From positions 267,220,001 to 267,284,000 of the forward strand of contig OZ024742.1 in assembly GCA_964016885.1 (NCBI GenBank): 64,000 nt of DNA, written 5' to 3'. Made by a program: the position numbers and the translations under genes. The notes beneath the pieces were generated by a model. That model was not told the DNA's origin, did not search any database, and saw only the letters and a list, made by a program, of their open reading frames with translations. This stretch comes from Eledone cirrhosa (lineage: Eukaryota). Within the stretch, counting starts at the first letter, position 1. Every line of letters begins with the position of its first letter. Of the stretch, positions 4,601-58,641 are shown in pieces.

Positions 4601-6594
4601 TGACAAACAAGTAATAGTTATCTTCGACAAATCTCGCATTCAAATACGGAATATTAATATCTACTCTCAAATTAGCTATTTTTCTTGAAGCAGGGTTAAC
4701 TTCAAGACACTCGTTGATAGAATAATCTAGGAAGCGTAAATGGCTAACTGATCAGTTTAGTCGGGGTGAAAAATAGCATGGTATTTGTGTTCCTCCACGG
4801 GTTGAACAATAACGATCATTCAAAGTAACAATTAAAGAAGAGTTAAAAGGATACCATAACATTACACCTTCAAACGGTTTTACGAAGTTGGTCGGTTGTA
4901 CAGATGGGGCTCATTCAGATAATAGTGTAGGGGAGTGGAGCTACTGAATTTTAAAAATTAATAAAACAGCTATGATGCAGAGTAGTGGTTATCTGTTTGT
5001 CAAAGTTGTACACAGGGAATCACTTAGCCCGACTTCCTTGACAAACTTGTTCAGCAATAGGATCATACTCAAAACCGCATGGCTAGAATGTGAAGTTCTT
5101 AAGAACAGAGGTGACCAATATTTGAGTGAGAGCAGATTTTGTCGATTCAATGAACTTCAGTACATGTAAGGGATTAGTTTGCTTGTCCCAGTATACAAAA
5201 CATGTAAACTATTTTTTTTAAGATGTAAATTCTGACGTCACAGTTTCGGCTCTGGCATGAAAGCCCTTTTGATAAATGGCAAAATTCGCATTACACAAAA
5301 CACTGACATTTTCATTATTTTACCAATTTCATTAGCTGATTTCTTTTAATAACGACCATCATTAGTTTTATATGATTCTGAGTTTTCTCTTAAATATTGC
5401 AAAATTTCCTCTGCCTACATACATAAGTAGAAATATCTGTACTTATCCACATATATTCACTCAGAAACACACACACATCGTCACTATATTCTGAGTTGAA
5501 GTAGCAGACATTAGTGAAGTCGATTCATATCGATTATAGCTATTCGTTATAACTGTTTGGTTCTGTGCCAATATTAAAAATCAATATTGGTTTCTTTCTT
5601 CGTATTTAGGCAAAAAGTTTGGTTAGGTTTGTGAAATGTGGTGGGCTGGTGGTGGAGGTTACAGGGAGAATTGAAACTACTGCATTATCTGCTTGCATGA
5701 TTCTTAGGTTTTACATAACAACGCTGGTCATAAGATAGATATCAATAATATTTAATGAGAATATGTTGATATAGTAGATATCGTAGAACATCAAGCTTCC
5801 CTTTCATTCCTCTTGGGTCGATGAAATGTGTGCAAGTAATAAACCCGAGTTGAACCATCGACTAAAAGACTCTTTCCTATAAAATTCAACTTTCTAAGTT
5901 GTAAAGAACTCGACATTAACTGATTTTTGTTGGGAATCAATACGCTAGAATTGATGAGAGATCAATGCAAACAGCTCTAATCTGCTCCCATTGATACGGA
6001 ACTGGTAGTTTAACAGCATTGATTGCGACATTTTAGGTTAATGAAGCGGACAGAGATACGGTATCCTTTCCATGTGGAAAACTATTACAATATTGATTGT
6101 TGATTTAATACCTTCCCCCTTCACTCTGTTTCTCTCTTTTTCTCTCTGCTTCTATTTGCCTTTCTCCTTTGTGAAGTGGGAAATCGCTCTTGATGCTTAA
6201 ATGTTGTTTGTTCGTTTTCCAATAACTAATGAGAGATCGTAGCTTCATTTAGTTCAGCAAAGCTATTATAACCGCTACTGTTGCTTTTTACAACACTTAA
6301 TCGTTTTCTCCACACATAGTATGGTGGCGGTTCACTCGCTTGTTGAATATTTGATTGATGGATTCTATTGACATAATGAGAAAAAAAGATCGTTCCGAAA
6401 CATTTAAAAGAAATAGAATATCAGTTTATGGGGCAACCTTCCTGTATTTGTGTAATATGTTGCAGCAGCTACCCTTTGTTAATTGCAGGTAGCTGGGAAG
6501 TGTAAGAATTTTGACTTAAAGCTCAAGTTTTGAGGATGATATTTTGTCAGAATATAAAAGTAACATATTACAAATGTAACACATTAAATATATA

Positions 6595-6949
6595 TATTTC
6601 TTTATTTGCCACAAGGGCACAAAAGATGGGGACAAATACAAATACAAAGTGGGGAGTTTACATACAAGCGTATGAAAATATAACTAATAAATAAATAACA
6701 AATAACAATTGAAATCCCCAATAGCGGGGAGGCGTTACACATGGGTTGTACACACCCCGAAAAAATGTACAACCCTCATCTCCAGGAGCACGAAGAGCGA
6801 GCGTTCCTTTCATTTCTTCCTCTTTTTCCTGAACCTCCAGGTTTATATAGAGAAAAGGCCCAACCACTCGGGCCATTTATGCCACATTCACCCACCTTTC
6901 ATAAAATGTACTGGGGTGCAGCACCTCTCTCCACTCTGATTCTTCTTCT
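6595..6949 (-). mobile_element. 5'-truncated Tx1-clade LINE (ORF2 C-terminus + 3'UTR) with 12-bp TSD
   Basis: Encodes ...MARVVGPFLYINL (cf. MARVNGPSLYIRL of ORF 56185-58377). Its 3' end gcccttgtggcaaataaagaaat matches the young copies. The direct repeat attaaatatata lies at 6583-6594 and 6950-6961. Confidence 0.85.
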
Positions 6950-13890: not shown

Positions 13891-14580
13891 TGGAGGTAGT
13901 GGGTGACAGGGTTTTGACGTGGTCAGTATCACGGGCGTGGGTAAGGGCAGTTTGAATGACAGAGCGAGCATATCCACGCTGGATGAAGCGAGAAGCTATG
14001 CATTAAGACTGGATCTCAAAATCAGATTCCTGGCTGCAGAGCAGACGAAGATGGAGGAATTGGTAGTATAGAATAGAAAGTTTGGTGTATGCGGGTGGGA
14101 GGAGGTGAAGTCAAGTTAAGAGTGGGAGTCAGTGGGTTTGTAGTAGAAGGAAGTAGAAAGGGTGTGGTGAATATGGTCGATAGAGAGAGAGAGAGAGAAA
14201 TGTCGAGAAATTGGACGGAAGAATCGGAAACGGAGGCCTTGATGTTGAGAGAAGGAGGACAAAAACTAGACGAAGGAGAGAAAGCAGTCAAGCTGTTCAG
14301 TGGAGACAGATGTGGCACTGATACTGTTGTCGATGTAACGATCGTATAGTGCAGGGTTAGGTCCAGTGTACTGGGAAAAGATCTGGGTGTCGACGTAGCA
14401 AACAAATAATTTAGCATAGCTCGTGCCCATTCTGGTTCCCATGGCTTCCCCATAGACCGTCTGGTAAAACTCTCCAGAAAAGTAAAACCCATCTAGGGTT
14501 AGAACAAGCTTAGTAACATGGAGATGAGTGGATGTGATAGAGCGTTGGTCATAAAAGTATCGGAGGCAGTCACCTTGGGG
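13890..14580 (-). mobile_element. Penelope-like element RT/thumb fragment, decayed
   Basis: Minus strand gives SVQFLDI, YYKPTDSHS*LDFTSSHP and QFLHLRLLCSQESDFEIQS...RFIQRGY, typical PLE RT thumb motifs. Confidence 0.75.
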
Positions 14581-15029
14581 GATGATATCTATCTTTTATT
14601 TTCTTTGTATCCTTTGTAAACCTGTCTCTATTTTTGTACTCCTTAATAAGGGCTATAGGCCGACACATCGAAATTTCGTTCCACTTTTCCATATAAAGCG
14701 TGAAACTAATAAGACGATTTTTACTCCTGTTTGTCGTTCCCTGAACTATATTTACACACTTACACGACAATCCTTGTATTTCAAAGCTGGATATTTACAC
14801 ACGCCCTGTGACTGCTCTATTTTACCATCTTGTCCAGCCAGCAGGTTACCCAGGGCCCTCGAATATTTTGATTTTTACTAATCACCCGGGACCTTCTTAT
14901 CGCTTTTCTTTTCTTTCTTCTTTATATAACTTCTATATTTATATAACCCTATATCCCTTGTCTTGTTGTTTTTACCACTAACTTGTCTGTGTCAAGTTGA
15001 GTTACTCACTCATTCCTCTTCTCTCACAT

Positions 15030-17110
15030 TACCTAGCCCCAAAAATGTCCTCTAACACCTGCGCAACTGATTAAAACTCTACCTTATCATGACACGCTCA
15101 TTCCATCTCTTGATTTATACAAAATTTCAACAAACAACTCTTCCACTTCTTAACCTACACTAAAGTCCGTAAGATACATCCTCTCCTTAGTTCCGCCCGT
15201 GCACTCAGGCACACACTTCCATTTCCACATAACGTCTCCCTCACCCCAAACTGAGCCCCTTCCCACCAATCCTCCCAATCACACCCACAACGTGTTGCCA
15301 CTCTACCGCAGGCCTTCCGCTGTCTTGTTCGAAGCATTTGCTCCTCAGTAGAGGTCTGCGTTTCATACAACCCTCGCATTGTGGCAACGAATTTCGGCCC
15401 AGCATGGTCGTTGAAAGATTCCTGCACCACACCAAATTTTACGCGCATTTTCATGGCAACGCTCCGAACGTCTCTAGACACCATGATGATGGGGTCCTGC
15501 GACCATCACACTGGAAACCGTCTCCCGGACAATTCAGTGCCCTGGATACGTTCATTGATTCCTACCACCACACTATGAATCGTTTAAATTTCCGTAAACG
15601 GTACAAACGATGCGCCATCTCGTGGGCCGAACTTGCTCCTCTCCGCTCCCTCTGTGACCGTGATGACATCGTCATTAATCAGGCCGACAGGGTGGTGCCG
15701 TGGTCGTGTGGTTCACGGACCCCTAAAAAATGGAGGCTTATCGGCAACTCTGGAACCCTCTCTTCTACGGTCTCCTTGCCGCCGATCCCACTCCTCAATA
15801 CCAGCAACAGGACAAATCTACTATACGCCAGCTCGTCTCTTCCTCTCTTCTACCCCACTCGGCACAAAATCTTATCGTCCGCATCCCACGTACCTCTACT
15901 ATCTACTTCCTCTCCAAATTACACTAGCCTGACAAACACGGCCGCATCATCGGCTAAGCCTCTAGGTGCCCCACTGAACTTGTTTCAGCTTTTCTTGATT
16001 CCGGATTGGACCCACTGGTCGTTACCCTACCGTCTCACATAACCGACACCAACCACGCCCTCCACCTCTTCGACTCCTTTATTTTCCCACCTGGCTCCCC
16101 AGCCCTATTCTTTACCTTCGACATCAAATCCCTATACACTGTCATCCTCCATACCGAAGGTCACCGGGCCTTGCAACACTTCCTTAAACTTCACCCCTCC
16201 CCTCAAACTTCCACCTCCACCCTTATCCCCTTAGGCGAGTTGGTCCACTCCCTCAACTTTTTCTCCTTCTCGTATGAGATTTACCATCGTTTCACCACCT
16301 CTATTTCTACGTCTGTTAACTTCCTGGAATTTCTGTAACCATTAACCCCTCCAATCGCTCCCTCTTCACTTCAGCCTACTTCAAGCCATCGGGCTTCCAC
16401 GCCTACGTCAACTTCTCCTCCGCATATGCCACAATACAGCAAACACTCCATCCTCTATTCCCAATTCATCTCACTACGCCACCTATGTAGTCGAACGCAT
16501 AATTTTGAGATTCAGTCTCATTACATGGCCAGACATTTCGCTAAACGTGGATACCCCCGACCCTGATTCAAGCCACCCTCACCCGTGCCCGTTGCGTCGA
16601 TCGCACCATTACCCTTACTCCACGCCACCGAGAGCTCTTCCCCCTTACCTACCACCCATCAGAAAACGATCCTCCGTCTTTTCTGCCGCCTACAGTCTGA
16701 TCTCTCTACCTCACCCATTTTTCACGTCCCATCCCTCCCGTAACCTTCTGAACCTTCAAGCCCGCTCGTAACCTTCTGAACCTCCTCCTCCTCAGCGCTC
16801 TTAATCCCCCCAACACCTCTCCTGGATCCTACCCCTGTTGCCAACCCCACTGCGATACATGCAGTTTTATCTCCCACACTACCACCCTTTTCCGATCCCA
16901 AAACAGGCTTGCCCCGTTAGGAACTCCTTGGGCTGCACCTCCACCAGCCACGTCTATGGGTTCCGTTGTACTCTGTATGGAATTATCTTCTTTGGTCAGA
17001 CTGGCTGACAGATTTGCAACCCGACTCCTATCTCCTTACATTTTCGATCTGCCGGCCACTCCACACGCCACCTCTGTGTCTTCGGGCTCGCCCATTGTGC
17101 CGGACATTCA
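15030..17110 (+). mobile_element. Penelope-like retroelement (RT + C-terminal GIY-YIG endonuclease), pseudogenised
   Basis: LLSRGLRF, DIVINQADR (KxADK), IYFLSKLH (YxLPKxH), FFTFDIKSLYTVI.H.EG..AL..FL, thumb SIxYSQFxxLRxLCS...RGYP, a CxxxxCxxC linker (~16835) and CTSTSHVYGFRC...FGQTG (GIY-YIG, ~16930-17005). Confidence 0.85.
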
Positions 17111-17721
17111 TTTGGTTATCCAATAGTTTTTTTTAACGCCCATTCGATCGCGTAATTTGTTATTTCGTCTTGGTGCTACCATACAATTCAGATGTCGATA
17201 CTACTAGCACTCTATTTCCTGTTTGTGAATCACGTATTCTTTGTTATTTTCTTGTCTCCATAAGCCTAAGAGATCGTTTTCGTCACACATTGATCGGCTT
17301 TAGTATCGCTCATATATTTAGGTATATATTTGTACTTACCATGTAATTTAATGTAAGTTCTTCGTTTGTCACGTTTACTGTATAGTTCATGTCTGTATTC
17401 CGTACTGTTTCTTCTTCTTATCGTCATCCGTCTCCACTAGGACAGCGTTCAACTAGCTCTTTAGACACTGCCCACAAACGAACCTCCTTGCAGGAGTTGA
17501 ATTTTGGTAAATTGGCCTCGACTAACGTTGTGCTCGAAGTTCTTGTTTTTGTTAGCATATTGTACCGTCTATATACTATCCCGTCCATTTTCTTCCGTCC
17601 CCTTGCTTGTGTCAGGTTATATATATGTATGTATGTAAAAGGTAAACAGAAATAACAACACAATCGGGAGAGTATATGGAAGGGATATATTAGGTTAACG
17701 CTTGATATAGCAGGAAGAGGG

Positions 17722-18620: not shown

Positions 18621-21049
18621 GTTTCATTTATTGACCACCAGGGCCGACATTTAGGGCACAATGCAAAAACAGGGTTAATGGGGATTTACAATAAAATCGA
18701 GTAAAAAAAACAACCCCAAAACACAATTAACAATAAGAATACATATGAATTCCCTTATAGGAGGCGGAACCACCCAGGGGGGTGGGGGGCTCAGGCACCT
18801 CACCTTCCTGAACCACTCGACGCTACGAGGGCATCCTCCCCCCTCAAATTAACCAGCCTATAGGTGCATGCTCAGATAGGGCCATTCACATGGGTCATTC
18901 TCGCCACATTCAACCAGCTTTTTAGCAAATGTCCTGGGAGGCAGTACTTCTCTCACCACCCTAACCTACCTTTCCAAGTGAAACTTGAAAAAGTTGAGGG
19001 ATTGGCCGAAGAGAAAAGTGTATGTCTTCAGTCCTTTCAATCTGGTCAACCATACAACCTCTTTCGTTACTGCCACCAGACAGAAGATCATTGCCTGCCC
19101 TTGCTGGCCAAAGGAATGCGGCGTGTCGATCTTCACTATGGTCCCGGCCGATAGCAGGATTTGTTTTACACGCGACAACAGCTGTTCGACTTAACTCCAC
19201 AAGTCAGTAATGCACGAACACTGGACAAGTGCGTGCAGAACGGTTTCGTCGCTCTGTGTGCACTTGTTGTTGACAACCACTTCCTGTCAACCTTTGCTTA
19301 ACTAAATTGTTGACCCGGTGTCTGTGTTTGTTGTGGATGTGGTGTCTGCAATTTCAGATGTCTGTTTGTTTATTTGTTCTTGTGTCTGTTTAGATTGTTT
19401 GCGTTTTGGTGATTATGGTGATGGTTGTGTTGGTGTTGTTGGGATGTGTTTGTGTGAGCAGTGTGTGCATTTGTTGCTGTGGGTGTGTTTGTGCTTTGTG
19501 GGGGCTTTTACTTTTTATTTGGTGGGGGGGTGGGGGTTACCTCATCTTCACCACAGGAAGATGAGTAGCCTGTGGCTGTAAGTGTGTCAGTGGCAGTGGG
19601 AGGGTGAATGTGACAGCTTTCTTCGTTTCCCTCCTGGGTGGCCAATGTTGGTGGGTTGCGTTTCGGTTGGTTTTGTTGCTGGTGGTTTTGCAGGTGCTGG
19701 TATTGGTGGTGGTCCTCGCCTCGGCGTCAGCAGCAGTGGAGACCTTTGACTCCTTCTACCTTTCAGAAGTTGAGGGCAGAAGGCTCGCAAACAGATTGTC
19801 TCCCCGTAAACGAAACAATGCGGGCCTTTTGCGCTAGGTCATTATATATAACACCATCCCGTTCTGGATGCGTATGTGGTCCGGTATTTTTGTATATCCT
19901 CGAGCCTGATCTAGTGAAGTATCTCTAGGTTAACTCCAGACCAGTCCTCACTGGCAGTTCTCGTAAACTCTATCGGAACTACATCCGTCCACTCCATGAT
20001 CACACATCCCAAGAGCCTCCACATGACAGGTCCGGGGGTAATCCCGGGAATGCAACACGAGCAGTTATGTTTCCAATGTAGGAGGTGTACATAATGACCT
20101 TGCTGTTTTGCAAGGGGTCATTGCATGATTCATAACGAGGGCTTCTGACTTAAACAGCACCGAAATGGTGCCGTATTGTCTGCACCTCACTATGTACACG
20201 GTATCATCCCTGATGCGCACCAAATCGCAGCTTCAATATCTGTCTGAGCAATTAAAGCCACCCTCTTTATTTCTTCTGAAATGCATCTGTAATGCACTGT
20301 TCTACACTCCACTGCTTCAATGGCTTCTGCCGGGACAATTACGTTGGCCCAAGTTTGCTCTTTTTTGATGAGCTTCCAGGCCTGGGCCACCTTTTTATCT
20401 TTATCCGTGAGGTCCATGCTGAAGCATGACCTCTTTTTGGATGCTGCGCAGCGAAAGAGTTCATGTTGTTGGTAATGTTCTTGTTGTTCTTGGTGTTGTT
20501 GTTGTCGCTGTTGCCTTTGGTTATATATTTGTTGCCGTACTTGTTCTCGGTGCAGTTGGTGTTGTTCCTGTTGCTGTTCATGTTTTTGTTGTTGGTGTTA
20601 TTGTCGTTGTTGTTTTTGTTCTCATTGTTTCTGTTGTCTGTGTTGTTGGTGTCGTTGTGACTGCAGTGGTTGGTGTTGTCATTTTTTTTAGGCTGGTGAT
20701 CTCAGTGTTGCTGTCATTGTCATCTATTTGTGGTGGTGTTGCTAAATATGATGTAGTATAAAGTTTTGTTGTATCCCTCCTCTAAACATTTAAGCCGTTG
20801 TCACACGACAGCAGACTTAAAGCTTGGGGGATGGGCGTGGCTCAGCCATGTTTCTACTTTTGTTTTATGAAAAAAACTAAAAAATGCAAAATTCAAATAT
20901 TTGGGCCAAAAGTCCCAAATATTATAGCGTCTCCCCTTCACAGGACAAAGATGGAAGTCTTATGACCCTTTTCAAATAATGCAACAAATATTACAAATGA
21001 AAACAAAACTGAAAATTTACCGAAAATACGTCTACACTGTCTGACAGCC
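18621..21049 (-). mobile_element. Internally deleted Tx1-clade element (5'UTR + decayed ORF1 + ORF2 scraps + 3'UTR) in a (TTA)n site
   Basis: ORF1 start MAEP at ~20849, an Asn/Thr-rich tract, a decayed zinc knuckle region near 19800, ORF2 C-terminus AVTKEVVWLTRLKGL, and 3' end gccctggtggtcaataaatgaaac. (TAA)n lies on both flanks. Confidence 0.8.
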
Positions 21050-22499: not shown

Positions 22500-22660
22500 A
22501 TAAAGAACGTACTCAAGCTCAGAAATGCTATAAATATAGCTTATAAAATAGAGTGAAGACCCTTAAAAGACAGAAAAGAATTTTCCAACGACCACTATGA
22601 GGAATTGAACTCAATAACTTCTATATACCGGCTAGGAAGGCAATGACTACATTCTTCCCG
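22500..22660 (-). mobile_element. Second SINE-like interspersed repeat (also at 27320-27450)
   Basis: The two loci share ctataaa.atagcttataaaata...gaagacccttaaa.gacagaaaa; the minus strand has a B-box-like g(a/g)gttcaatt. Confidence 0.5.
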
Positions 22661-22880
22661 ACATTTTATCTATATATAACTTGACAACGGTTTCATATAT
22701 CAGCAGGCAGGCGAGGATCTGACAGACAGACATCTGTGTTTAACCAAAATAATGTACGAAGCCGAATTTTTGGCTTTTGAAACGGAGAGAATGTATGTAT
22801 GTATGTATGTATGTATGTATGTATGTATGTATGTATGTATGTATGTATGTATGTATGTATGTATGTATGTATGGTGACAT

Positions 22881-23488
22881 GTCAGGTCACCAGTTGGTGC
22901 TACTGGTAACATGTATCCCAGTACAACCTGTCTCAGGGTCGGGTCATTGGCGACTAAACTGGCAACCCCACCAAGGTTTCTTGGTGAGGAGGGTGACTTT
23001 GGACATCCTGCAGGACTAAAAACAAAACTTGTCAAAGAGCAAGGGAGCTCTTAAGACTCAATAGCCATCCAAAATCACCGGGAGAGATGACCCCTTAGCC
23101 TTTGTCAAGGCAGAATTCTAGGAGAAGGAAAACTCTGATATAACACCTGCAACCCTGATGGTATCCAATGATGTTGACTTGTTCTTCTTTTTGGTAAATA
23201 TCATCTTGGTTAAGAGAGTGGGACTGGCTTTGTGCAGTGCCTTTGCTCACTATAAAAGCTTCACAGCACAGGCATTGCTTTATATCTGGAGATCTCTCTG
23301 CACTTGTCATCACATGGTACCATGGGCCCTGCACTATGTGTCAATAATGGTCACAAGTGTAGTGTTTGTACCAGAGTTTTCAAGTCGCTGGCTGGACTAA
23401 AAAGTCACATTCATTCAGCGCATCGGTTGGGGTTCTCCTACATGGATATAAAGTAGTGGCCGTACTCGAAAACGAGTTGGCAGCCACC
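22881..23488 (+). mobile_element. Non-autonomous RTE-type bipartite retroelement, full unit 1, flanked by (TATG)n
   Basis: 5' part has the RTE 5'UTR-like motif ctaggagaaggaaaactctgat. 3' part encodes an RTE-like C2H2 finger (CSVCTRVFKSLAGLKSHIHSAH), then a terminal stem-loop gtggc..actcgaaaacgagt..gccac and an (ATGT)n tail. Confidence 0.7.
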
Positions 23489-23547
23489 ATGTATGTATGT
23501 ATGTATGTATGTATGTATGTATGTATGTATGTATGTATGTATGTATG

Positions 23548-24002
23548 TTATCTCTTTCTTTTAATTTCGAGTATATTTTTTTTGACCGGCCACCTTCCTG
23601 GTGGCAAGGTTGTAAAAGAAAAGAAATTCTCATCCCTTGAATCGCAAGAATGTTTTGCAAATTTTGAAAGTGCCAGCTATCGCAGCCATTTGTAGACTGA
23701 ATTAGGGAGCTGCGCTTTTTGTCCGCATATCCAAGTTCAGTCATACTTTGGTCCAAGCGGGTTGGTATATAACCCGTAGCTCCAATAATGATGGGTATGA
23801 AGCTAAAGGTGTATCTTGGATACTGGATTTGTAAACTCCTCATCAATGGTCCGTAGAAGTCCTCCTTCTCCTAAATTTTTCTGACAACGTGTACATCAAG
23901 TGGGCAGCTGATCTCCACAACACAACACGTTTTCAATGTGTGGTCCCAAACAACAATATCAGGCCGGTTGTGCTTTAATTTGGTGGCAGTTTTTATTTTA
24001 AG
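23548..24002 (-). mobile_element. 5'-truncated R4/Dong-like RLE retrotransposon (endonuclease domain + 3'UTR) inserted in (CATA)n
   Basis: HNRPDIVVWD...VVEISCPLD...EKEDFYGPL...IPIIIGATG is a PD-(D/E)xK restriction-like endonuclease; both junctions are directly in TATG repeats. Confidence 0.8.
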
Positions 24003-24075
24003 TATGTATGTATGTATGTATGTATGTATGTATGTATGTATGTATGTATGTATGTATGTATGTATGTATGTATGT

Positions 24076-24293
24076 ATTGCTTTGTATCTGGAGATCTCTC
24101 TGCACTTATCGTCACATGGTACCATGGGCCCAGCACTATGTGTCAATAATTGTCACAGGTGTAGTGTTTGTAACAGAGTGGTCAAGTCACTAGCTGGACT
24201 AAAAAGTCACACGTGTTCAGCGCCACATCGGTAGGGGTTCTCCTACATGGATATAAAGTAGGGGCCTTTATCGCAAACGAGTTGGTAGCCACC
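24076..24293 (+). mobile_element. RTE-type non-autonomous element, 5'-truncated unit 2
   Basis: Matches the last ~215 bp of unit 1; (TATG)n on both sides. Confidence 0.75.
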
Positions 24294-24346
24294 TGTATGT
24301 ATGTATGTATGTATGTATGTATGTATGTATGTATGTATGTATGTAT

Positions 24347-24951
24347 GTCAGGTCACCAGTTGGTGCTAAAGATAATATGTATCCCAGTACAACCTGTCTC
24401 GTGGTCGGGTCGTTGGCGACTAAACTGGCAACCTCACCAAGGTTTCTTGGTGAGGAGGGTGACTTTGGACATCCTGCAGAACTAAAAACAAAACCTGTCA
24501 AAGGGCAAAGGAGCTCTTACGAGTCAATGGCCATCCAAAATCACCGGGAGAGATGACCCCTTAGCCTTTGTCAAGGCAGAATTCTAGGAGAAGGAAAACT
24601 CTGATATAACACCTGCAACCCTGATGGTATCCAATGATGTTGACTTGTTCTTCTTTTTGGTAAATATCATCTTGGTTAAGAGAGTGGGACTGGCTTTGTG
24701 CAGTGCCTTTGCTCACTATAAAAGCTTCACGGCACAGGCATTGCTTTATATCTGGAGATCTCTCTGCACTTGTCGTCACATGGTACCAGGGGCCCTGCAC
24801 TGTGTCAATAATTGTCACAAGTGTAGTGTTTGTACCAGAGTTTTCAACTCGCTGGCTGGACTAAAAATCACACTCGTTCAGCGCATCGGTAGGGGTTCTC
24901 CTACATGGATATAAAGTAGGGGCCGTACTCGAAAACGAGTTGGCTGCCATC
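24347..24951 (+). mobile_element. RTE-type non-autonomous element, full unit 3
   Basis: Near-identical to unit 1 with the same 5' start gtcaggtcac; (TATG)n on both sides. Confidence 0.75.
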
Positions 24952-24982
24952 ATGTATGTATGTATGTATGTATGTATGTATG

Positions 24983-25013
<31 letters not shown>

Positions 25014-25719
25014 CACAGATATTGAGAGAGCTTATAGATAGGACAACACACGCTGTCTTTTCGTGGGGTAAGTTTTTAATTAATATTTTGTATTCTGAAA
25101 AATACAACAATTTTTTGCTCACTGGTCTCGGGAATATTATGACAGAAGTTTGTGGAAGTTACACAAATATTTTTGTATATTTTGCCAGAGCAATCCTTAT
25201 TTATATTTTACATTTTACATTTACTTACATCTCAATATAACATGGCTAAATTCAAATTTTGCAAAGAGAAGAAAACGGACAAATGAATTAGATACATCTC
25301 ACAATAACGTCTACTCACCCTACCCACCACCACATCGACATTTACACATGTCATTACCCTATCTAGACTAAAGTCACCGGCCTGTTGTCAAACTCTCTAC
25401 TCTGTGTTGAATGTGTATGTGTATATATATATGTGTATGTATATGTGTGTATATACATCACTCAATCAAACGACCATATTTCAACCCCAACATCTACAAC
25501 AACACCGGCAAATGATGTTTACAGCAACAACAGCTTCAGAATGAATTGAAATGAACATTTACAACAACAGCGGCATCAAACGATATAAAAAACAAAACAA
25601 AAAAAACACAAAATAACAAAACACACACACACACACAACTCAACATCAATTGCCACCACCACCACCACCACCACCACCACCACCAGCGACCGGGCCTTAC
25701 GAAAACAACAACTTTAATA

Positions 25720-26070
25720 ATAATAATTTTTCTGCTTTTGGCACGAAGCCAGCGATTGTTCCAGCGCATTACTGGTGCTCTCTTTTGTTGACTCCGTGGG
25801 GATGAAAGGCAAGGCTGACGTTGGCGGGATTTGAGCTCGGAGCGTGGAGAGACATAGCTCTATGCTGTAAAGCAATTATAATAATTGTTTCTACGTTAGG
25901 CACAAGGCCAGCAAATAGCCAGTGCATTACTGGTACTTTATTTTATCGATTCTGTAAGGATGAAAAGCAAAGTTAACCTCGGCCGGATTTGAACTCAGAA
26001 TGGCAAGGGCCGTAACTCTATACGTTAAAGCATGGCGTGCGACCCTCTACCAATACTGCCAATCCACCAA
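25720..26070 (-). mobile_element. Two tandem tRNA-derived SINE copies (25720-25875, 25880-26070)
   Basis: Same SINE body, B-box and head as the other copies. Confidence 0.85.
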
Positions 26071-26168
26071 TAATACTGAACGGTAACACGAACGGCTTCA
26101 ACTATACGAACTCTTTTGAAAGTCAACAGTTGACATGATCTTGTAATCTTGTATCAGTAATGACGGTA

Positions 26169-26203
<35 letters not shown>

Positions 26204-26334
26204 AGTGAGTACCGTGTGTGTGTTTGTTTGTATGCATGAGTGTTGCTGTGTGCGCGCGTATGTATGTGTGTGTGCACGCGTGTGTGTATGTCGTACGTAT
26301 AAGTGTCAATAAGTGAGTTTTTTGTTTTTTTTTA

Positions 26335-26620
26335 TGCGCGGGGACATAGAAATAGTCGGGTTGGATACCCGATCGCGCAGTTAAACCACTGGGAGTGAAG
26401 GACCCCTAGCCCTTGTCAGGGCATTCTTCTAGGAGAAGGCATCTCAGGAAACTGGGTTAACTCCGACATAAAACCTGCGGCCCAGTAGTTACCGATGATG
26501 TTGATCTTTTCTTCTTTTCGAGTTATAGCTACTGTCGCTCAGAGAGTGGGATTGGCTCAGTGCACAGTCTTTCCTCACTTTAAAAATATTCGTCACGCAC
26601 AGACATTGCACGATTGCATT
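26335..26620 (+). mobile_element. Diverged relative of the RTE-type non-autonomous element
   Basis: gacccctagcccttgtcagggca..ctaggagaagg..acctgc..gatgatgttgatcttttcttctttt..agagagtggga aligns with the middle of units 1, 3 and 4. Confidence 0.65.
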
Positions 26621-26668
26621 AATTAAATTTTATTGATGTATGTATGTATGTATGTATGTATGTATTAT

Positions 26669-27276
26669 GTCGGGTCACCACTTGGTGCTACTGGTAACAT
26701 GTATCCCAGTACAACCTGTCTCATGGTCGGGTCGTTGGCGACTAAACTGGCAACCCCACCAAGGTTTCTTGGTGAGGAGGGTGACTTTGGACATCCTGCA
26801 GGACTAAAAACAAAACCTGTCAAAGGGCAAAGGAGCTCTTAAGAGTCAATGGCCATCCAAAATCACTGGGAGAGATGACCCCTTAGCCTTTGTCAAGGCA
26901 GAATTCTAGGAGAAGGAAAACTCTGATATAACACCTGCAACCCTGATGGTATCCAATGATGTTGACTTGTTCTTCTTTTTGGTAAATATCATCTTGGTTA
27001 AGAGAGTGGGACTGGCTTTGTGCAGTGCCTTTGCTCACTATAAAAGCTTCACGGCACAGGCATTGCTTTATATCTGGAGATCTCTCTGCACTTGTCATCA
27101 CATGGTACCATGGGCCCAGCACTATGTGTCAATAATTGTCACAAGTGTAGTGTTTGTACCAGAGTTTTCAAGTCGCTGGCTGGACTAAAATGTCACACTC
27201 GTTCAGCGCATTGGTAGGGGTTCTCCTACATGGATATAAAGTAGTGGCCGTACTCGAAAACGAGTTGGCAGCCACC
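26669..27276 (+). mobile_element. RTE-type non-autonomous element, full unit 4
   Basis: Near-identical to units 1 and 3; (TATG)n on both sides. Confidence 0.75.
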
Positions 27277-27291
27277 ATGTATGTATGTATG

Positions 27292-27323
<32 letters not shown>

Positions 27324-27454
27324 GGAAGTGCTCAAACGCAGAAACTCTATAAACATAGCTTATAAAATAAGGGGAAGACCCTTAAATGACAGAAAATGAA
27401 TTATCAATGACCGCCATGAGAAATTGAACCCAATATCTTGCCAACCATATGTCC

Positions 27455-29570
27455 TCTATAGAACTTGTGTTATGGGCCTGAAGTTATCTAACGTCCGTCT
27501 TTTCAACTTTCCTTATCAGCGTCACTACGCCCCGGCTCAGAGAACCGGGAATACTGCGGTTCTGCTCCCAGTTGCAATAGAGCGCTTCGATGTGATCAGA
27601 GAACAAGTCTGGCATATCTACATAAACCTCGTAGTGCAGACCTTCCAAACTGCGTTATTGCACTTCGTGCACTCGGAATCTCGGCAAAAGTTATCGGCTT
27701 TTCGCAGCGCTCATCATCTTCGGGTGTAAGACGCGGTAGGATGCTGAGATAGGGCCTGAAATCGGCCACAGTCTCTGACCTGAGACTCCCCACGAACAGC
27801 CGAGCAATATGCTGGCGAAAGTCCCCACAAATCTGCCTGGAATCGTTCACTTTAGATTCGTTTCGGTTTATCAAAGATCGAATTGTGGTTTAGTTACCAC
27901 GCTGCACCTCTTCCACGCGGGCCCATCGAACAGCTCTTGATCCCTCGTTTCTCATAGCACGCACCTTAGATCGTGCTACTATAGGACGAAATGGTCTAAT
28001 TCCATTCTCGCCGCTAGAAGGTAATTTGCAATGCCACTTCTAATCGCCTCGTCTAATTTAGTCACCAGCTCCCTCTTTTCTATTTTTCTCTAATCCTACC
28101 TCTTTGCCTAACCCTATCAAAATTACTCTAATCTCTCTACTGAGAGCCCCACACCACCCGTTGTTCACGACATTCCCTGTCAAATTTTGTTTAACTAAAT
28201 TGTTGACCAGGTCCCTGTAAGCCTTACGTACTGGAAAAGACATGTTCAGCTTCCACTAACCAGGTCCTAACCTTCGTGTCATATTTAGGTTGACCATACA
28301 GTTCACAAACTTGTGATCTAAATAGGCGACCGTTTGAAAGTGTGGACAGCATATATATACTTATCTATTGACCTAATAAAAATCTATCTATATACGAACT
28401 AGATTACACTATGTGGTTTGTCCAGGTCCACACTGGTGCATTAGGGAAATCTAGTTGGTACCTGTCACACAGTTTGAATTGGCTGAGCTTGTAGGCGAGG
28501 CTTTTGCACCACTAGCTCCTATCAGCTATTCTCACACAATCTCGGCGTGCATCTAAGATGCCGTCCCGATCCCTAGCTAACAGTAAAGGCGTCCAGGAGC
28601 CCAAAGAAGTCCGGCTCTCCGCCTCTGTTTAGGGCGTAGACGGCCACCAGTTTAAAGGCACCAACTTCGCTATTGTTCACGTCTAGGACTAATAACTTAC
28701 CATCCGGGTTTAGGAAGATCGACCTTACCTCGAGATCCAGGTCGTTCGTAAATAGCACTTACACCACACCTCCCATCTTCGGCCGACAAAGAGATGCGAA
28801 GATTTGATAATAGTCGAAACTGGTGGCTTGTGCGCGTGTGTCGGAAATCCTAGCCTTGCTGATGTGAATTACATTCATATCTAGTGACCTGAGGTCGTTC
28901 AGCAGGTGAACTTGCTTCCAGGACGACCCCAGGTCACAAGCATTGAAACATCCTATTCTTATGATGGCCATGTTGGCAGGCTAAAACAGGTAGAGGAAAG
29001 GTATACTTACCTCCCAGGTGCATGTGGAGGTCAGGTGGCTCGACCTCCATTTTTGGTGGAGTTTCTTTTGGGAAGCCCGTAAGCAATTTGCTTGTTTCTC
29101 TTATATTCGGGGTTCCCATGTCACGAGGATACCTCTCCCTAATCCCTTTGTAGGTATCGAGAAACATTCGTACCGGAAACAAATATTCTGGCACGTGAAT
29201 TGAGGTCGTTCCAAAGATCTTCCCATCTTTTTCGATATCTTGTCTTCGTATTATAAGGGCCATACATTGCCTGTTGGTCCTACTTACAACCACGAAATTT
29301 TGTGCGCTTCATTGTTGTTGTGGTTTTACTTGTTTGCGTTTGGGTGATTGTGGTTGTGATGGTGTTGTTGATGTTTTGAATGTGTCTGTGTTCGTTGTGG
29401 GTGTGGTGTTTGCGATTACAGTTGTTTGTGCATTATTTTGTTCTTGTGTTTATAGGTGCTTATTTGCGTTTGAAGGATTGTTGTGATGGTGTCTGCATTT
29501 TCTGTCGTGGGTGTTTTTGTGATGTGTGGAGATTTTGGGGGTATGAGCAGTGTAGTTTTTGCAGATGTTT
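27455..29570 (-). mobile_element. Decayed Tx1-clade LINE: ORF1 3' half + ORF2 APE endonuclease to start of RT
   Basis: MAIIRIGCFNACDLGSSWKQVHLLNDLRS (28971) is homologous to the ORF2 start at 60740; also FKLVAVYA, RSYID, DHK, PYLSILPRL and NFRPIT. Many stops. Confidence 0.85.
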
Positions 29571-29573: not shown

Positions 29574-30070
29574 CTATTGTATTGATAGTACTTTTCGTAA
29601 TATGTGTGTAGTACCTTGTAGCGATATTTTTTGTACGCTGTATATATTTGTAAGTTCTTGTGTTTTGGTTATGTATTTTTCTGTGTTTTCTTTTTTGTCA
29701 TTCCGAGAGCACCTACTATTATAGGTATTGTTTCTCTTTTCATTTTCCACATTCCTGTTATTTCTATCTTTAGATCTTTATATTTGTAGAGTTTCTCTAT
29801 TTCCTTGGAAGATATATTGTCGTCTGTGGGGATATATACATCTATTAAAAGCCATTTTTTTTGTGGTTTTTTACTATAATATCTGACCGGTTGGATTTGA
29901 TCTCTCTGTCTGTATGTATTGGCATATCCCAGAGAATGGTTGCTTTGTCATTCTCTGCCACTTATTCTGGTGTGTGTTTGTACCATCTTTTTCTGTGGGA
30001 TTTCATAATGCTGACATAATTTCCAGTATATAAAGGTCCCAGCTCATCATACCTGTGGATATATTCTTTT
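29574..30070 (-). mobile_element. R4/Dong-clade RLE retrotransposon C-terminal fragment (second lineage)
   Basis: Minus strand: WYKHTPE*VAENDKATILWDMPIHTDREIKSNRSDIIV...LLIDVYIPTDDNISSKEIEKLYKYKDL...IPIIVGALG...LQGTTHILRKVL. Confidence 0.8.
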
Positions 30071-31465: not shown

Positions 31466-32761
31466 AGAGGAAATACAACAAATTCAGTTGATAGAATTGC
31501 GTTCTTAAAACATTAAATACTTTAAAGTTAAGTATCAGTGATTGTTGTCTATTTTTAGAAACCTCATTGCCTTTCATTAACTCTTGGTATCGTATTGATG
31601 CTTCTGAGGATATTAAAAAATCACTTATACTTAACTATGGTCAATACATTTATGTTTCTTTATTTTATTTTATTATATTGTCCTGACATTCGTATTATTT
31701 GAATGATATATTGAAACAATTGTAAAGTATTAAATGATATAATAACTCTATTCTATCATCTGAATGTGTTATATATAAATATACATACATACACACACAC
31801 ACGCAGACACACACACACACACGCATATATATATATACAAATATAGATATTTATATATTCTTATTCTCGTAAATATTTATATTTGTGTCTGTGTGTCTGT
31901 CGCCTATGTATTTGTGTGTGAGTATGAGCTTGTTCAATTGTATATTGGGATGAGAAATTCATTGTGTATTCTATGTATTTATATGCATATATGTGTTTGT
32001 GTAAGGTTTCAAATTAGATAAAGGCAAATTACGTACGACATAAAATCTATTACGCTATATACATATTCTTGAATTTTCCATCTTGCTAATTGCTTTCAAT
32101 CAATTGTTTAACCTCGTGTCATTAGAAGAAAGTTGATTTTACTGTTTAGAGATTCAAATGCTGCAGGCAATATGTCAGCATTTCTATTAACCAATGTCTC
32201 ACCTTGTTTGCCTCATTTCATTTCAATTAGATCTTTACTTCTATAGATCAATTTAGTCATTATGGCTACCAACACTTACCAAGCACTGGGCCACAAACAT
32301 ACTACATCCTTTTTCCAGGGCATTTTATACTGCCTCTAGGGTATCCAATTCGCAGAGGAGACGGCTGGTCTCATCTCACCTTCACTACTCTCAATTACCA
32401 AGGATATTGCTTCAAAAACTAAACACCTATGCCTTCCTCCCTAGAATGTGAGCCTATTTTATTCCTGAAGTCATTTAATGTGCGGCTCTTCATAGAGAGT
32501 ATCATATATTTTGGAGCACACTGGCAAACCCTTGACAAATATTTTAACCCCAGTCAATACAAGGCTAAGGACACCTTTCAACATTTTATTTGGCTTGTTT
32601 AGATATCACATGTTCCCATCTCCCATCTATGCATGTTTGTTTGTATGTATGCATGTATGCATAAATGTGTGTATATACGTATCTCTATATGTATATATAC
32701 ATCCATATATATACAAAGTGTTAAAAGGATCAAATTTTAGTTTAGATCATTTTGATAAATG

Positions 32762-32991
32762 TTCTAGACTAAAATTTGATCGTTTTACCACTTTGTATCT
32801 CGGCTATGTAACACACTTGAAAATTTGCATTGAGCATTTTGTCATACCGATAACTGGCTAGTACTAAGTACTACTAAGGTAGTACTAAGTACTAGCCAGT
32901 TATCGGTATGACAAAATGCTCAATGCAAATTTTCAAGTGTGTTACATAGCCGAGATACAAAGTGGTAAAACGATCAAATTTTAGTCTAGAA
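32762..32991. repeat. Near-perfect palindrome, 104-bp perfect arms plus inner stem and 4-nt loop
   Basis: 32762-32865 is the reverse complement of 32888-32991; the centre is a-agtactac-taag-gtagtact-a. Confidence 0.95.
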
Positions 32992-33075
32992 ATACAAAGA
33001 CATACCCATGAAAATCATACCTTATCATACCTTATGATTTTGGTGGGTATGTCTCTATTTATAAAACAAACTTTG

Positions 33076-33139
33076 TATTTTATCTGATGAAAGCGTACCA
33101 ATGTTCTCTTTGTACCCTTGAAATATGTATAATAAAATA
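33076..33139 (+). ncRNA. Type I hammerhead ribozyme, intact core
   Basis: tattttat-CTGATGA-aagcgtac(13-nt loop)gtaccctt-GAAA-t(atgt)a-TA-ataaaata: 8-bp stem I, stem II with one mismatch, minimal helix III, predicted cleavage after 33131. Confidence 0.75.
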
Positions 33140-33145
33140 AATATG

Positions 33146-33181
33146 GTTTTATAAATATAGTATCCATTTATTTAATATCAT

Positions 33182-33220
<39 letters not shown>

Positions 33221-33253
33221 ATATTAAATAAATGGATACTATATTTATAAAAC
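33146..33253. repeat. Palindrome centred on (TA)n
   Basis: gttttataaatatagtatccatttatttaatatcattgt...(TA)n...acaatgatattaaataaatggatactatatttataaaac. Confidence 0.95.
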
Positions 33254-33265
33254 TAATCTGTATTG

Positions 33266-33331
33266 TATTTTATCTGATAAAAGCGCACCATAATTTGCCT
33301 TGGTGCCCCTTGAGATATGTATAATAAAATA
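33266..33331 (+). ncRNA. Second tandem hammerhead copy with mutated core
   Basis: Same stems I and III; core reads CTGATAA and GAGA; stem II is gcacca/tggtgc. Confidence 0.55.
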
Positions 33332-33462
33332 AATATGGTTTTATAAATATAGTTTCCATTTATTAATATATTGTATATTTACTCCACTAAATTGTTGAGT
33401 GCTTTATATCAGTTATAAACATTTTTAAGCTTGTTGAATCCCAACAAATTAAATATAACCTC

Positions 33463-39839: not shown

Positions 39840-41294
39840 AAATATAAATAACAATAACAGAATAGCAAGGAAAATACAACAATGAAAATTCCCGAACAGG
39901 GGGGATAATCACCAACGGTTGACTTAAGTGCCCATCCAAACCTGTACCACCCGACACTTCGAGAGCACCCGAGAAAGAAACCCCTCTCCTTCTCAAATTA
40001 AACAGCCTACAGGCTCATGCTCAGAGTATGCCCATTCACACAGGCCATTCTCGCCACATCCACCCACCTTTTAGCAAATGAACTGAGGAGCAGCACTTCT
40101 CTCTCCACCTTCACCTTCTTTTTCAAGTGAAACTTAAAACGTTGAGGAGAGATTAGTCTCAAAGAAAGGTGTCTGTCTTCAGTCCTTTCAACCTGGTCCA
40201 CCATATAAACATCTCTCCCTACCGCCACTAGACAAGGAAAATTGTCTGCCCTTCCTGGCCAAAAGAAGGCGGCGGGGCGATCTTCACTATGGACTCGGCC
40301 GATAGCCGGATCCGTTCCACACGCGACAACAGCTGTTAGACCTGACTTCCCAAGTCAGTACTACACAGACATTGGACGAATGCTTGCAGAACAGTATCGT
40401 CGCTCTTCGCGAATCTCGGACAAGTCCGTCTGACTTCACTTCCGTGCCAGTAGAGTTTATTTCAAACCAGCAGTAACCCCACTCCCCAGGCGACCTGCGG
40501 AAAGGCCCGTCTGACAAATGGCGACCACACCTATTTACCATGTAGCCAGAATATCTGCAGCTGCTGCAGCCTCAGCGCATATTTGCACATCATTAGTCAC
40601 GGCATGTCCAGCCCTCTGTGTAGAGGGTGCTGGCAACAGATGGACCGCCTCACCAACTGAACCTGTCCCCTCCAGAAGTTGAAGAGGAGCCACTCCAATT
40701 TCGCGGGGTGCAAACTGGGGCAACTATCTATATGACCCTATGCAGTTGGTCCAGTTTCATGGGAAAACATTGCCTTTTCTTAGCTGCAATAGCAGCGAAT
40801 GTATTCTTGTAGATGTTGTTCAAGTTATTGTTTTTGTTGCTGCCGTTGCTGCTAGTTGTCATGTCATTGTTACCATTGTTGTTGTTGGTGATGGTGGTGG
40901 TGCTAATTTTGTTGTTGGTATTGTTGTCGGTGAGGTTGCATGTTATAGTTGTAATTTTTACATTGTTCGCATTGGTGCTTGTGGTGGGTTTGCCATCCCT
41001 TCTCTCAACGTTTGACCTGCTGTCACGCCACAACAGACTCAATGTGTGTGTGTGTGGGGGGGGGGGGGGCGTGTCTTGCATATGTTTTTTTAAGAAAAGT
41101 TATTTTCGAAAAAAATAAAGAGTAAATATTTGGGCCCGAAGGCCCAAATATTATGCTATTGCCTTCACACAGGGCAAAGACGGGTGTCTCATGACACCTC
41201 TGTCACAAAAATACAACAATTACTTCAATGCAAAAATTTGGAAATAAACCAACTCACGGAGCTCACAAAAACACGTCTTCACAGTCCGACAACC
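39840..41294 (-). mobile_element. Internally deleted Tx1-clade element (5'UTR, ORF1 N-terminus, ORF2 C-terminus, part of 3'UTR)
   Basis: Asn/Thr-rich ORF1 start (ORF 40728-41081) and KRWVDVARMACVNG..LSMSL C-terminus (ORF 40007-40228). The 5'UTR resembles 20880-21049. Confidence 0.8.
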
Positions 41295-41399: not shown

Positions 41400-42960
41400 C
41401 AGTCAATAGACGCCTAAGACAATGGGATTATTAACGAAAGAGACGTTAAAACAGAAAACACACGCTATACCAGATGAAAGCAGGCAACAATTGATGAGCC
41501 GAAGTTTGTAATATTGTCTCTTGAGTAGCTGACCAAATTACATACCCCAACAAAATGTCTATTAACAGAAGGATAAAAATTGCAAAATAATAAGCACGAC
41601 TGCTTAGAAGGAAAAATAGCAACGAAGGTGATAGGCAATCACTTACACGACATTCCAACCTCAGATATGGTGTATGCTATAGAAAAAGCAATTGTAAGCG
41701 GAAGCCATATTTTGTTTATCGATTAGTTGAAAGCTTACCAGGAGAATGAGGAAGTACTTGAAGTAGCAGATTGTTTGCAGGCAATTTCTGATACAGGAGC
41801 TTGTTATAGAGTTTCAAAGTTGGAATTCACTCGAGAGAAATGACTAAAGGGGCGGGAGATAATGTCTGAAAAGTTGGAAGCATATATATGTTGTTGGGAG
41901 TAGAGCAAATACATAAACACGATGTTCACAGAGTATTGTAGACAGCCAAATGAGAAATTTTGAAACGCTTACAAAATATTTTATGGAAAATATCAACAGG
42001 AAAGTAATCCTTGTAACTCCTTATCCAATGAATGTCTGCTATTTTCCAAGAATTAAAAGTATTTGTTATGCAAAAGTTTAGGACAAAGAATTTCATCTAG
42101 TGACGAAAGATTGTACTTATACCGTAAAAATGGAGGATGGGCATAACAGTATTTACATGATATATATAATGTGTCAAATTTGAGTGGACTTTTATTTAGC
42201 AAACGCAAGTAGTAAGTGGTTCTGAGTATCCGGTCCAAGAGAAACAACCAGTAAATACACATGTATTAAGAGAGAAGTAGGAAAATCTCTTGATGAAATA
42301 GATTTAAGCATCAAATTCATTGATCACCAGATAAACTTTGAAGTTGCCTGGAAAGAGTGTTTGGAGAAAGTTAAAAGAAAATGTATAAAGCACAAACCAA
42401 ACTAAAGATTAGAACTTATGGCATGAAGGAAGTGCAAATCAAAAAGCGTATCAGGTGGCTTGAAAGCAAGATGGATCCGGGAAAGACGGCATAAATACTG
42501 AGCATACAGGAAAAAATAGTGGCGACTAAGGTATGAAAAACCAGTAGAGATCAGCCAACAGAAACAGATATGTGTACATTTTGCATTGAGAAAAACGAAG
42601 CAGCTCACAATTCAGTATCGGGTTGCAAGGTATTAATTTCCTTTTATATTTGCATGGACAACGGAATAGGGGCTGTTTGATGAAAGTGCAATTTGGTGCA
42701 GAGGCAACTAGGAGAAGTGTAAAGTGCTAGAAAAGGACAAATCAAAATTTTTATTGGATTTTGAGTACCTATTCAGAAAAACTTGCACAACAAGGGAGTC
42801 ATACCTATGAAGCACAAAAGAAAATGTATTTGTGTGACATCCCATGCCATAGGAATAATTGAGATTAGCATTGGTGCAGGCATGGAAAGGACTGAAAAAA
42901 ACTTGAAGAAACTTATAAAAAACAAGAAAGCCCGTGATTCTACAGTGCAGGATATCTAGA
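41400..42960 (+). pseudogene. Very old LINE reverse-transcriptase remnant
   Basis: Purine-rich tract with HILFID*LKAY (FxDxxKAF/YD-like) at ~41705; otherwise heavily decayed. Confidence 0.35.
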
Positions 42961-45201: not shown

Positions 45202-45639
45202 TAAGAGTCGATGGCCATCCAAAATCACCGGGAGAGATGACCCCTTAGCCTTTGTCAAGGCAGAATTCTAGGAGAAGGAAAACTCTGATATAACACCTGC
45301 AACCCTGATCGTATCCAATAATGTTGACTTGTTCTTCTTTTTGGTAAATATCATCTTGGTTAAGAGAGTGGAGACTGGCTTTGTGCAGTGCCTTTGCTCA
45401 CTATAAAAGCTTCACGGCACAGGCATTGCTTTATATCTGGAGATCTCTCTGCACTTGTCGTCACATGGTGCCATGGGCCCAGCACTATGTGTCAATAATT
45501 GTCACAAGTGTAGTGTTTGTACCAGAGTTTTCAAGTCGCTGGCTGGACTAAAAAGTCACACTCGTTCAGCGCATCGGTAGGGGTTCTCCTACATGGATAT
45601 AAAGTAGTGGCCGTACTCGAAAACGAGTTGGCAGCCACC
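45202..45639 (+). mobile_element. RTE-type non-autonomous element, 5'-truncated unit 5
   Basis: Matches the 3' ~435 bp of units 1, 3 and 4; preceded by mixed TATG/TA repeat and followed by (AT)n. Confidence 0.75.
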
Positions 45640-45670
<31 letters not shown>

Positions 45671-46610: not shown

Positions 46611-47042
46611 TATTTCCTGAAGAGGTGCGGCCTAGAATAAAGCACTGAAAATGGAATTACTTAACTGATATCTTTTTTGTGTTCTTCAAAATTGATGAAA
46701 TATTCTGGTCGCGTTGAAACGTTGGGAGATGTAGAAATGTATAATAATAATATTAATACATGGTCACACACACACACACACACACACGCACCCCCCCCCC
46801 CCACATTTAAATTTGTTTCGCATCAATTAAGTGAAATTTACTATTCCTGTGCTCTTCTGCAGGTATCCAGAAATTGGTAAGTTTCACTTCAAAATACTTA
46901 AGAAGACTGAGAGAAATGTGTTGCTGAACGCACATGTGTCACAGCGCCTAGCTCGTCCCATAATCGTGCCGCTAAAAATAGCAGCCGGTTTTATGGGACT
47001 AAAAATTAGCTCTACGTATGGAGCCGAGAATATTGTACATAT

Positions 47043-47469: not shown

Positions 47470-47559
47470 CTCTATATAATATATATAAACATAGGTATTT
47501 TCAGGGAATGTAGGAATTCCAAGCACAGGAAAGACGCTAATAATAGTCGATTACAAAGA

Positions 47560-48199: not shown

Positions 48200-48238
48200 T
48201 ATGTATAGGTGCATATATCCATCGAATTTTACAAATGA

Positions 48239-48286
<48 letters not shown>

Positions 48287-55326: not shown

Positions 55327-55327
55327 G

Positions 55328-56120: not shown

Positions 56121-56145
56121 ATATCTATCTATCTATCTATCTATC

Positions 56146-58640: not shown

Positions 58641-58641
58641 A

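Follow-up and report, generated by a model that had tools for sequence, protein, structure and literature searches.

Why is every copy of a short repetitive element found in one stretch of a genome enclosed at both ends by TA-containing simple repeats? The question arises from a locus of Eledone cirrhosa at positions 22791-27321 of a stretch of 64,000 nucleotides (GenBank assembly GCA_964016885.1, contig OZ024742.1, positions 267,220,001 to 267,284,000 of the forward strand), which was analysed as a whole and is called the window below; all coordinates count from its first letter. The locus contains copies of a non-autonomous element of about 610 bp together with (TATG)n tracts, and an initial annotation, made from the sequence without database searches, read it as a "(TATG)n-linked array" of an RTE-type element that targets the microsatellite forming its own tail. 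The analysis presented here indicates a probable microsatellite bias of the element, in a tract shared with a long interspersed element (LINE) of the restriction-like endonuclease (RLE) type. Papers are cited by PubMed Central identifier.

Copies of the element and their flanks

A BLASTN search with the first unit as query and the window as subject gave five copies, all on the plus strand, with a pairwise divergence of 2-10%. The three full-length copies, U1 (22879..23489, 611 bp), U3 (24345..24952, 608 bp) and U4 (26667..27277, 611 bp), start at the identical base. The other two are truncated at the 5' end with the 3' end intact: U2 (24076..24293, 218 bp) consists of the 3' module only and is 8-10% diverged from the others, and U5 (45202..45640, 439 bp) lacks about 175 nt. 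The four same-orientation units and the fifth at 45.2 kb of the initial annotation were thus recovered. Each of U1-U4 is preceded and followed by (TATG)n, as had been described, with two irregular junctions: U1 is preceded by five additional bases, GTGAC (22874-22878), which are a 5' motif of the element in reverse complement, and a short imperfect junction lies between the repeat and U4.

Seven (ATGT)n tracts were delimited, namely T1 (22791..22873; 20.8 units, pure, with no element copy upstream), T2 (23489..23548), T3 (24002..24077; 19 units), T4 (24294..24348), T5 (24952..25012), T6 (26636..26666) and T7 (27277..27321). T2 is the 3' tract of U1 and at the same time the 3' flank of an antisense RLE-type LINE fragment, and T7 follows U4 on its 3' side and also forms the terminal (ACAT)n of an antisense repeat resembling a short interspersed element (SINE). 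Element sequence makes up 45% of 22791-27321, and T4 is the sole tract that directly joins two copies (U2 and U3); U1 and U2 are separated by the RLE fragment, and U3 and U4 by 1.6 kb of other repeats, so that the description as a (TATG)n-linked array goes too far. The repeat around U5 is a mixture of (TA)n and (TATG)3.

TA or TATG repeats occur at both ends of all five copies, at three separate sites. Outside the cluster TA-containing repeats occupy 1.7% of the window, which gives a probability of about 5e-6 under uniform insertion. The tail agrees with the local target, being (ATGT)n in U1-U4 and (AT)n, without G, in U5; it is therefore not fixed as (TATG)n, as had been assumed. In four of five copies the 3' repeat begins with AT, which agrees with the report that the target duplications of RTEs have their start at the A of TA (PMC13295347). 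The motif is (TATG)n in four copies and (TA)n in one, and the phase at the 3' junction of U2 differs, so a single fixed motif and insertion phase was rejected for the element. Because the tail follows the target, and because four of the five 5' tracts have no possible origin from a sibling copy, insertion into pre-existing repeats is favoured. On balance we lean towards independent, RTE-mobilised insertions that are biased to pre-existing TA-containing microsatellites, with a tail largely derived from the target.

Independent insertion or duplication

The common orientation of the copies and the repeats bracketing each unit are also what local duplication would leave behind, whether by unequal recombination between (TATG)n tracts, as a read-through dimer of U2 and U3, by segmental duplication or as an assembly artefact. 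At alignment column 586 the same variant occurs in the neighbouring U2 and U3, and there is a 30-nt match between the upstream flank of U1 and the downstream flank of U4. The distances argue otherwise, as neighbours are not closest relatives: they amount to 1.8% for U4-U5, 2.5% for U3-U5, 2.9% for U1-U4, 3.0% for U1-U5, 3.3% for U3-U4 and 4.3% for U1-U3, and U2 differs from every other copy by 7.9-10.2% (9.4% from U3). U5, 18 kb off, is hence nearer to U4 than U1 is to U3. Over 439 columns 20 private substitutions (U1 7, U3 6, U5 4, U4 3) were counted against two shared splits. At least 8 of 58 variable columns, counted by eye, are CpG-type transitions, which points to biological decay and not to read error.

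The initial annotation had named shared flanks as the sign of segmental duplication. Among eight flanks of 200 nt the sole match across units is the SINE-like repeat, which lies on opposite sides of U1 and U4; the copy adjoining T7 (27322..27439, minus strand) carries a B-box-like motif, and the second copy (22503-22620), of 82% identity and with a decayed ACAT/AT tail, is located 170 bp upstream of T1. Segmental duplication was rejected on the divergence pattern and this flank comparison. The star-like divergence and the unshared flanks favour, as far as sequence comparison goes, separate insertions from a source element, and local duplication in any form appears improbable; a read-through origin of U2 and U3 is possible.

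Origin of the flanking tracts

Under insertion into pre-existing repeats, an autonomous RTE would supply the machinery in trans and copy the unit by target-primed reverse transcription. The endonuclease of this partner would nick at TA, and the last bases of the RNA (AU, perhaps AUGU) would anneal to the nicked target and prime synthesis, as the models in PMC6007223 and PMC13295347 lead one to expect. A pairing of tail and target has been proposed for RTEs (PMC6007223), and the targets of Bov-B are reported as rarely resembling the tail (PMC13295347). Since (TATG)n and (TA)n would offer a nick site and an annealing site at every repeat unit, they would collect insertions, and the repeat after each copy would be mostly duplicated, slipped target. 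The cluster would go back to two (TATG)n tracts that existed beforehand and received insertions one after another, the first from the RLE fragment, the older U2, U1 and U3, the second from U4; if the tract regrew with every insertion, the site would stay available without having to be created by the element.

The initial annotation had proposed a loop in which insertions seed further insertions: an RNA with an (AUGU)n tail would lay down a new (TATG)n tract each time, and later copies would target it. All seven perfect (TATG) tracts of at least four units in the window touch U1-U4, U3 sits in the tract that follows the older U2, and microsatellite seeding by RTE and CR1 tails is known (PMC2887409, PMC3157835). 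However, U3 is the sole copy that fits; U1, U2, U4 and U5 have a 5' tract with no copy upstream, and those tracts therefore need another origin. The U5 tail contains no G, and T1/T2 and T6/T7 could just as well be (ACAT)n termini belonging to the antisense RLE fragment and SINE-like repeat. The targeting part of the proposal stands as a bias within the window, whereas the self-seeding loop, although possible, is unlikely and not the best reading of the five junctions.

The tracts might also have grown after insertion. In that case the copies would carry the ordinary RTE signature, having entered T-stretch...TA sites that contained an ATGT unit or two, within a region poor in genes where mobile elements accumulate, and slippage would have expanded target duplication and tail later, with no microsatellite preference. 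A run of at least three T is found 3-17 nt upstream of three of the four outer 5' tracts (background 23%, P 0.04); for runs of at least four the value is 0.002 or 0.19 depending on an interval chosen post hoc, and is weak. No host gene was recognised among the long open reading frames (ORFs) and ten proteins scanned. This explanation demands that a pure tract of 31-83 nt grew separately 5' of each copy and that U2 landed by chance precisely where the RLE fragment is truncated, and we consider it rather unlikely.

Several observations weigh against the preferred reading of insertion into existing microsatellites. It is based on five copies from one window picked for its cluster, and U5 is therefore the one unbiased test. 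Target duplications cannot be delimited inside repeats, and at the 3' junction of U2 the A is missing. No partner LINE was found, so that the assignment to RTE is based on a 23-nt motif, a generic C2H2 finger and a hairpin. The unfiltered MELT table of PMC9115989 (additional file 10), which concerns another octopus RTE not shown to be the partner of the element, has TATGTAT in 0 of 211 rows; 46 consecutive rows hold nine target calls, two of TA type and seven that are not TA repeats, and most TA-type rows are flagged as low-complexity. Of the 211 rows of the same table, nine have a target call of (TA)n type, one of these including ACAT units, and none has GTGTGT or ACACAC, which suggests a bias to TA-type targets and not specificity.

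Structure and classification of the element

The RTE-like 5' untranslated region (UTR) motif of the initial annotation was confirmed: 23 nt at element positions 239-261 (26905..26927 in U4, plus strand) are identical to the core of a conserved RTE 5'-UTR domain (OegopSINE; RTE-1_HRo position 215; PMC5786205 supplement). The more specific motifs neighbouring it had no match in the available part of that supplement. The same domain is also reported from Ceph-SINEs, Ingi-3_AC and R4-1_ADi (PMC5786205), a caveat on the RTE assignment.

The 3' 210 nt comprise a C2H2 zinc-finger relic (27140..27211 in U4, 23352-23423 in U1, plus strand), about 60 nt of UTR and a terminal stem-loop (27244..27275 in U4, plus strand; z score -3.4, 0 of 200 shuffles as good). 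The stem-loop, stated earlier to be common to all units, is present in four of five copies (z -2.8 to -3.6, 0-2 of 200 shuffles) and decayed in U2 (z 0.1). The relic matches Pfam zf-C2H2 with an E-value of 3e-4, under the curated cut-off. It matched no RTE protein, and that the finger is RTE-like, as also claimed, is our presumption. An RTE with a C2H2 finger is described in PMC9115989.

An older relative of the RTE 5'-UTR half (26383..26609, plus strand, 69% identity by BLASTN) matches the element up to about position 404, and U2 starts within a few bases of that point. Because the similarity of the relative ends where U2 begins, we infer a junction of 5' and 3' modules near position 404; the unit would accordingly be an internally deleted RTE-clade LINE that retains some 400 nt of the 5' UTR and some 210 nt of the 3' end. 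A relic of 68 nt of the 5' domain (4234-4299, plus strand, 76%) lies in non-repeat DNA and is too old for its junctions to be read.

The first 128 nt (26667..26794 in U4, plus strand) form a domain closed by a predicted helix of bases 1-13 with positions 114-128, present in each full copy (U1, U3 and U4) with predicted pair probabilities of 0.5-1.0. The fold reaches z scores of -1.7, -3.4 and -1.9 in these copies, with 14, 1 and 16 of 300 shuffles as good. A descriptor of ribozymes like that of hepatitis delta virus (HDV) gave no match in three copies, no hammerhead or twister core was found in the element copies, and none of the Rfam ribozyme families matched the element. A ribozyme head of HDV-like or twister type is thus not supported, although a fold of a kind not yet described is conceivable. 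HDV-like, twister and tRNA resemblances seen by eye failed the fold, descriptor and shuffle tests, and Rfam microRNA matches fall on TATG tracts, far below the cut-off.

ARAGORN reported no tRNA, and Rfam gave no tRNA in the element, a weak test, as a control SINE likewise gave none. An A-box-like motif occurs at position 17 and a B box can be placed with three to four mismatches; the score is equalled by 54 of 500 shuffles of U1 and 220 of 500 of U4. A tRNA head with A and B boxes is not supported, and a tRNA-derived SINE (SINE2, Ceph-SINE) was rejected. Six-frame translation and a search for reverse transcriptase (RT) revealed no endonuclease or RT coding capacity in the units, and no RTE-type RT was seen in the window; the earlier statement that RT and tRNA head are lacking agrees with this.

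In the predicted fold of the element 3' UTR (27227-27290, plus strand) the motif TACATGGATA pairs with the (AUGU)n tail (z -2.0, 8 of 200 shuffles). This modelled pairing could be chance or a tail-sensing helix.

The 5'-UTR motif, the C2H2 relic, the 3' hairpin and the missing RT lead to the classification as a bipartite non-autonomous RTE, a known kind of element, and RTE membership is likely on these sequence features. The bipartite structure claimed by the initial annotation is supported in these respects, and the partner LINE is the part that was not recovered. A word-indexed protein search with the 3' peptide yielded none from two candidates; a HMMER scan of representatives gave 360 matches, the best 150 of them all multi-stretch zinc-finger proteins; and the ESM Atlas returned generic C2H2 clusters only. 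No homologue was found for an 80-codon frame of U4, no further element copies in GTDB contigs, plasmids or phages, and no match to the motifs in the available parts of supplement files 1-4 and 8 of PMC9115989.

Bipartite RTE LINEs such as Bov-A, RTESINE1/2, WALLSI3, MAR4_MD and RTE-N2_Lch (PMC5786205) likewise join an RTE 5' UTR to a 3' end without RT or an RNA polymerase III head, and the conserved 5'-UTR domain is common to the element, Ceph-SINEs, RTE-3_BF and RTE-1_HRo (PMC5786205). The element is longer than those of the examples with a known length (195-470 bp), retains a C2H2 coding relic and has a microsatellite at both ends in five of five copies. Octopus RTE-2_OV and an RTE-8_BF-like element of O. 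bimaculoides (PMC9115989) are RTEs in which a C2H2 finger occurs together with a microsatellite at the 3' end, a combination also seen in the element, itself likely an RTE. Compared by description, the microsatellite of RTE-2_OV begins at the ORF end (PMC9115989), whereas the element has about 60 nt of UTR with the hairpin in between. Activity of RTE, Dong-R4 and Tx1 elements is reported from O. vulgaris (PMC13282606).

Neighbouring RLE-type LINE

The unrelated RLE-type fragment (23549..24002, minus strand, 454 bp, 5'-truncated) occupies the same tract as the element copies on the other strand and has (ACAT)n on both sides. That these tracts also flank the RLE fragment and the antisense SINE-like repeat had been overlooked in the initial annotation. 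The fragment shows 68% identity to RT/RLE proteins (best E 7.5e-41; five matches among 30 candidates) and, in tblastn, reaches the C-terminus of its relatives with one stop and one frameshift. It carries the C-terminal restriction-like endonuclease of an RT-RLE LINE, comprising the PD..E endonuclease region followed by about 85 nt of 3' UTR, and contains no RT. A profile built from its relatives matches R2 structures (E 2.7e-21). Its clade is presumably R4/Dong-like.

In O. vulgaris, Dong-R4 is the RLE group for which the highest activity is reported (PMC13282606), and the target of Dong is given as (TAA)n (PMC2887409); because of this reported target, the (ACAT)n flanks may mean that the fragment has a specificity different from that of Dong. 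The flanks of RLE relatives in GTDB were confirmed in none of 42 candidate stretches.

The shared tract raises the alternative that a microsatellite-specific, R4/Dong-like RLE machinery, and not an RTE, mobilised the element and gave it its target. RLE clades are described as mostly target-specific (PMC4640811), and R4-1_ADi, as said, has the same 5'-UTR domain. Relative to the repeat, however, the element is oriented opposite to the RLE fragment, and it has no similarity to the 3' UTR of the latter, which makes this alternative very improbable.

Other repeats in the window

Several unrelated retroelements in the window sit in microsatellites. At 55328-64000 (plus strand) (TATC)10, a 750-bp 3' fragment, (TATC)6, a 2.5-kb truncated copy and (TATC)18 are followed by an apparently full-length L1 copy with a CCHC ORF1, which extends past the window end. 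The three copies are 99.4-99.9% identical and presumably Tx1-like, and three of the four (TATC) tracts of at least three units in the window belong to this array; it looks like a young (TATC)n-specific family. Older, decayed Tx1-like relatives occur at 27469-29300 (minus strand), 18843-19265, 39992-40722 and 6585-6948. An 83% direct repeat (54666-54760 and 55236-55330) just upstream of the array has a CTGAT(G/A)A motif, which we presume to be reminiscent of Penelope-type ends.

Weak RLE-type LINE relics were detected at 42099-42647 (plus strand) and 29684-29967 (minus strand), with independent E-values of 0.002-0.04. A SINE-like family, 200 bp long, contains a motif resembling a B box and ends in short (ATT)n; about 12 copies are present (1506, 18280, 18498, 25721, 25879, 38088, 38334, 43257, 46436, 47628, 51912 and 53668), of which those at 18.3/18.5 kb and at 25.7/25.9 kb form tandem pairs. 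Inverted repeats that are long and nearly perfect (arms of 225 nt, 95%), similar to miniature inverted-repeat or foldback elements, lie at 47030-47482, 32711-33381 and 48200-48325. The region 14000-17130 is GC-richer, contains broken ORFs and appears Penelope-type by eye, with no Pfam match in the four frames scanned.

Comparison with known systems

Bipartite RTEs (PMC5786205), tail-seeded microsatellites (PMC2887409, PMC3157835) and microsatellite-specific Tx1 and RLE elements (PMC4494074, PMC4640811) are known already. An RTE derivative flanked by repeats on either side departs from these papers and hints at a preference unusual for the RTE family. Literal phrase searches of open-access text returned no report of an RTE in microsatellites, of tandem self-targeting or of octopus TATG; Repbase, Dfam and the Zenodo O. 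vulgaris library are outside this scope, and the family may be catalogued there.

If flanks are ordinary genome-wide, the element is merely one more bipartite RTE derivative. If the bias is true, target preference extends to a clade described as non-specific, which would contribute to an understanding of how genomes rich in microsatellites and their retrotransposons promote one another, and of the poor performance of such loci as markers. One could go further and see in this RTE-clade family a true microsatellite-targeting retrotransposon, whose RNA end anneals to (TATG)n or (TA)n and whose tract is regrown with each insertion, sharing (TATG)n pads with an opposite-strand R4/Dong-like element while LINE clades divide the microsatellites among themselves. 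It would be the third site-preferring clade with an apurinic-like endonuclease (APE) after R1 and Tx1, the only site-specific APE clades that PMC6007223 names. This wider proposal is tentative, and its truth seems doubtful rather than likely.

Among microsatellite-specific LINEs, Kibi inserts into (TC)n, Koshi into (TTC)n and crocodilian Tx1 into (TTCC/TTTC)n (PMC4494074), Togen into (TG)n (PMC4640811) and Dong into (TAA)n (PMC2887409); the Tx1-like array in (TATC)n described above is of the same type. These LINEs and the element are alike in having copies bracketed by a microsatellite and serial insertion in the same orientation. They differ in that the former belong to Tx1 or RLE clades with a specificity set by the endonuclease (PMC4494074, PMC4640811), whereas the element tolerates at least two motifs. 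A LINE is called microsatellite-specific when more than 20% of its copies genome-wide are flanked by one target type (PMC4494074); the count for the element, five of five copies at TA-containing repeats, covers this window.

With the RTE insertion signature Tn-TA and its tail-target coupling (PMC6007223, PMC13295347), and with microsatellite seeding by RTEs (PMC2887409), the element shares TA at the junction, a 3' end of tandem repeats and the proposed priming by base pairing; there is no consensus on the role of RTE tandem-repeat tails (PMC13295347). If the tail follows the target, be it (ATGT)n or (AT)n, the annealing model becomes directly testable from filled and empty alleles. In the published coupling one or two bases overlap, and a resemblance between target and tail is rare (PMC6007223, PMC13295347), whereas the element has long repeats at both ends and a tail that changes with its target.

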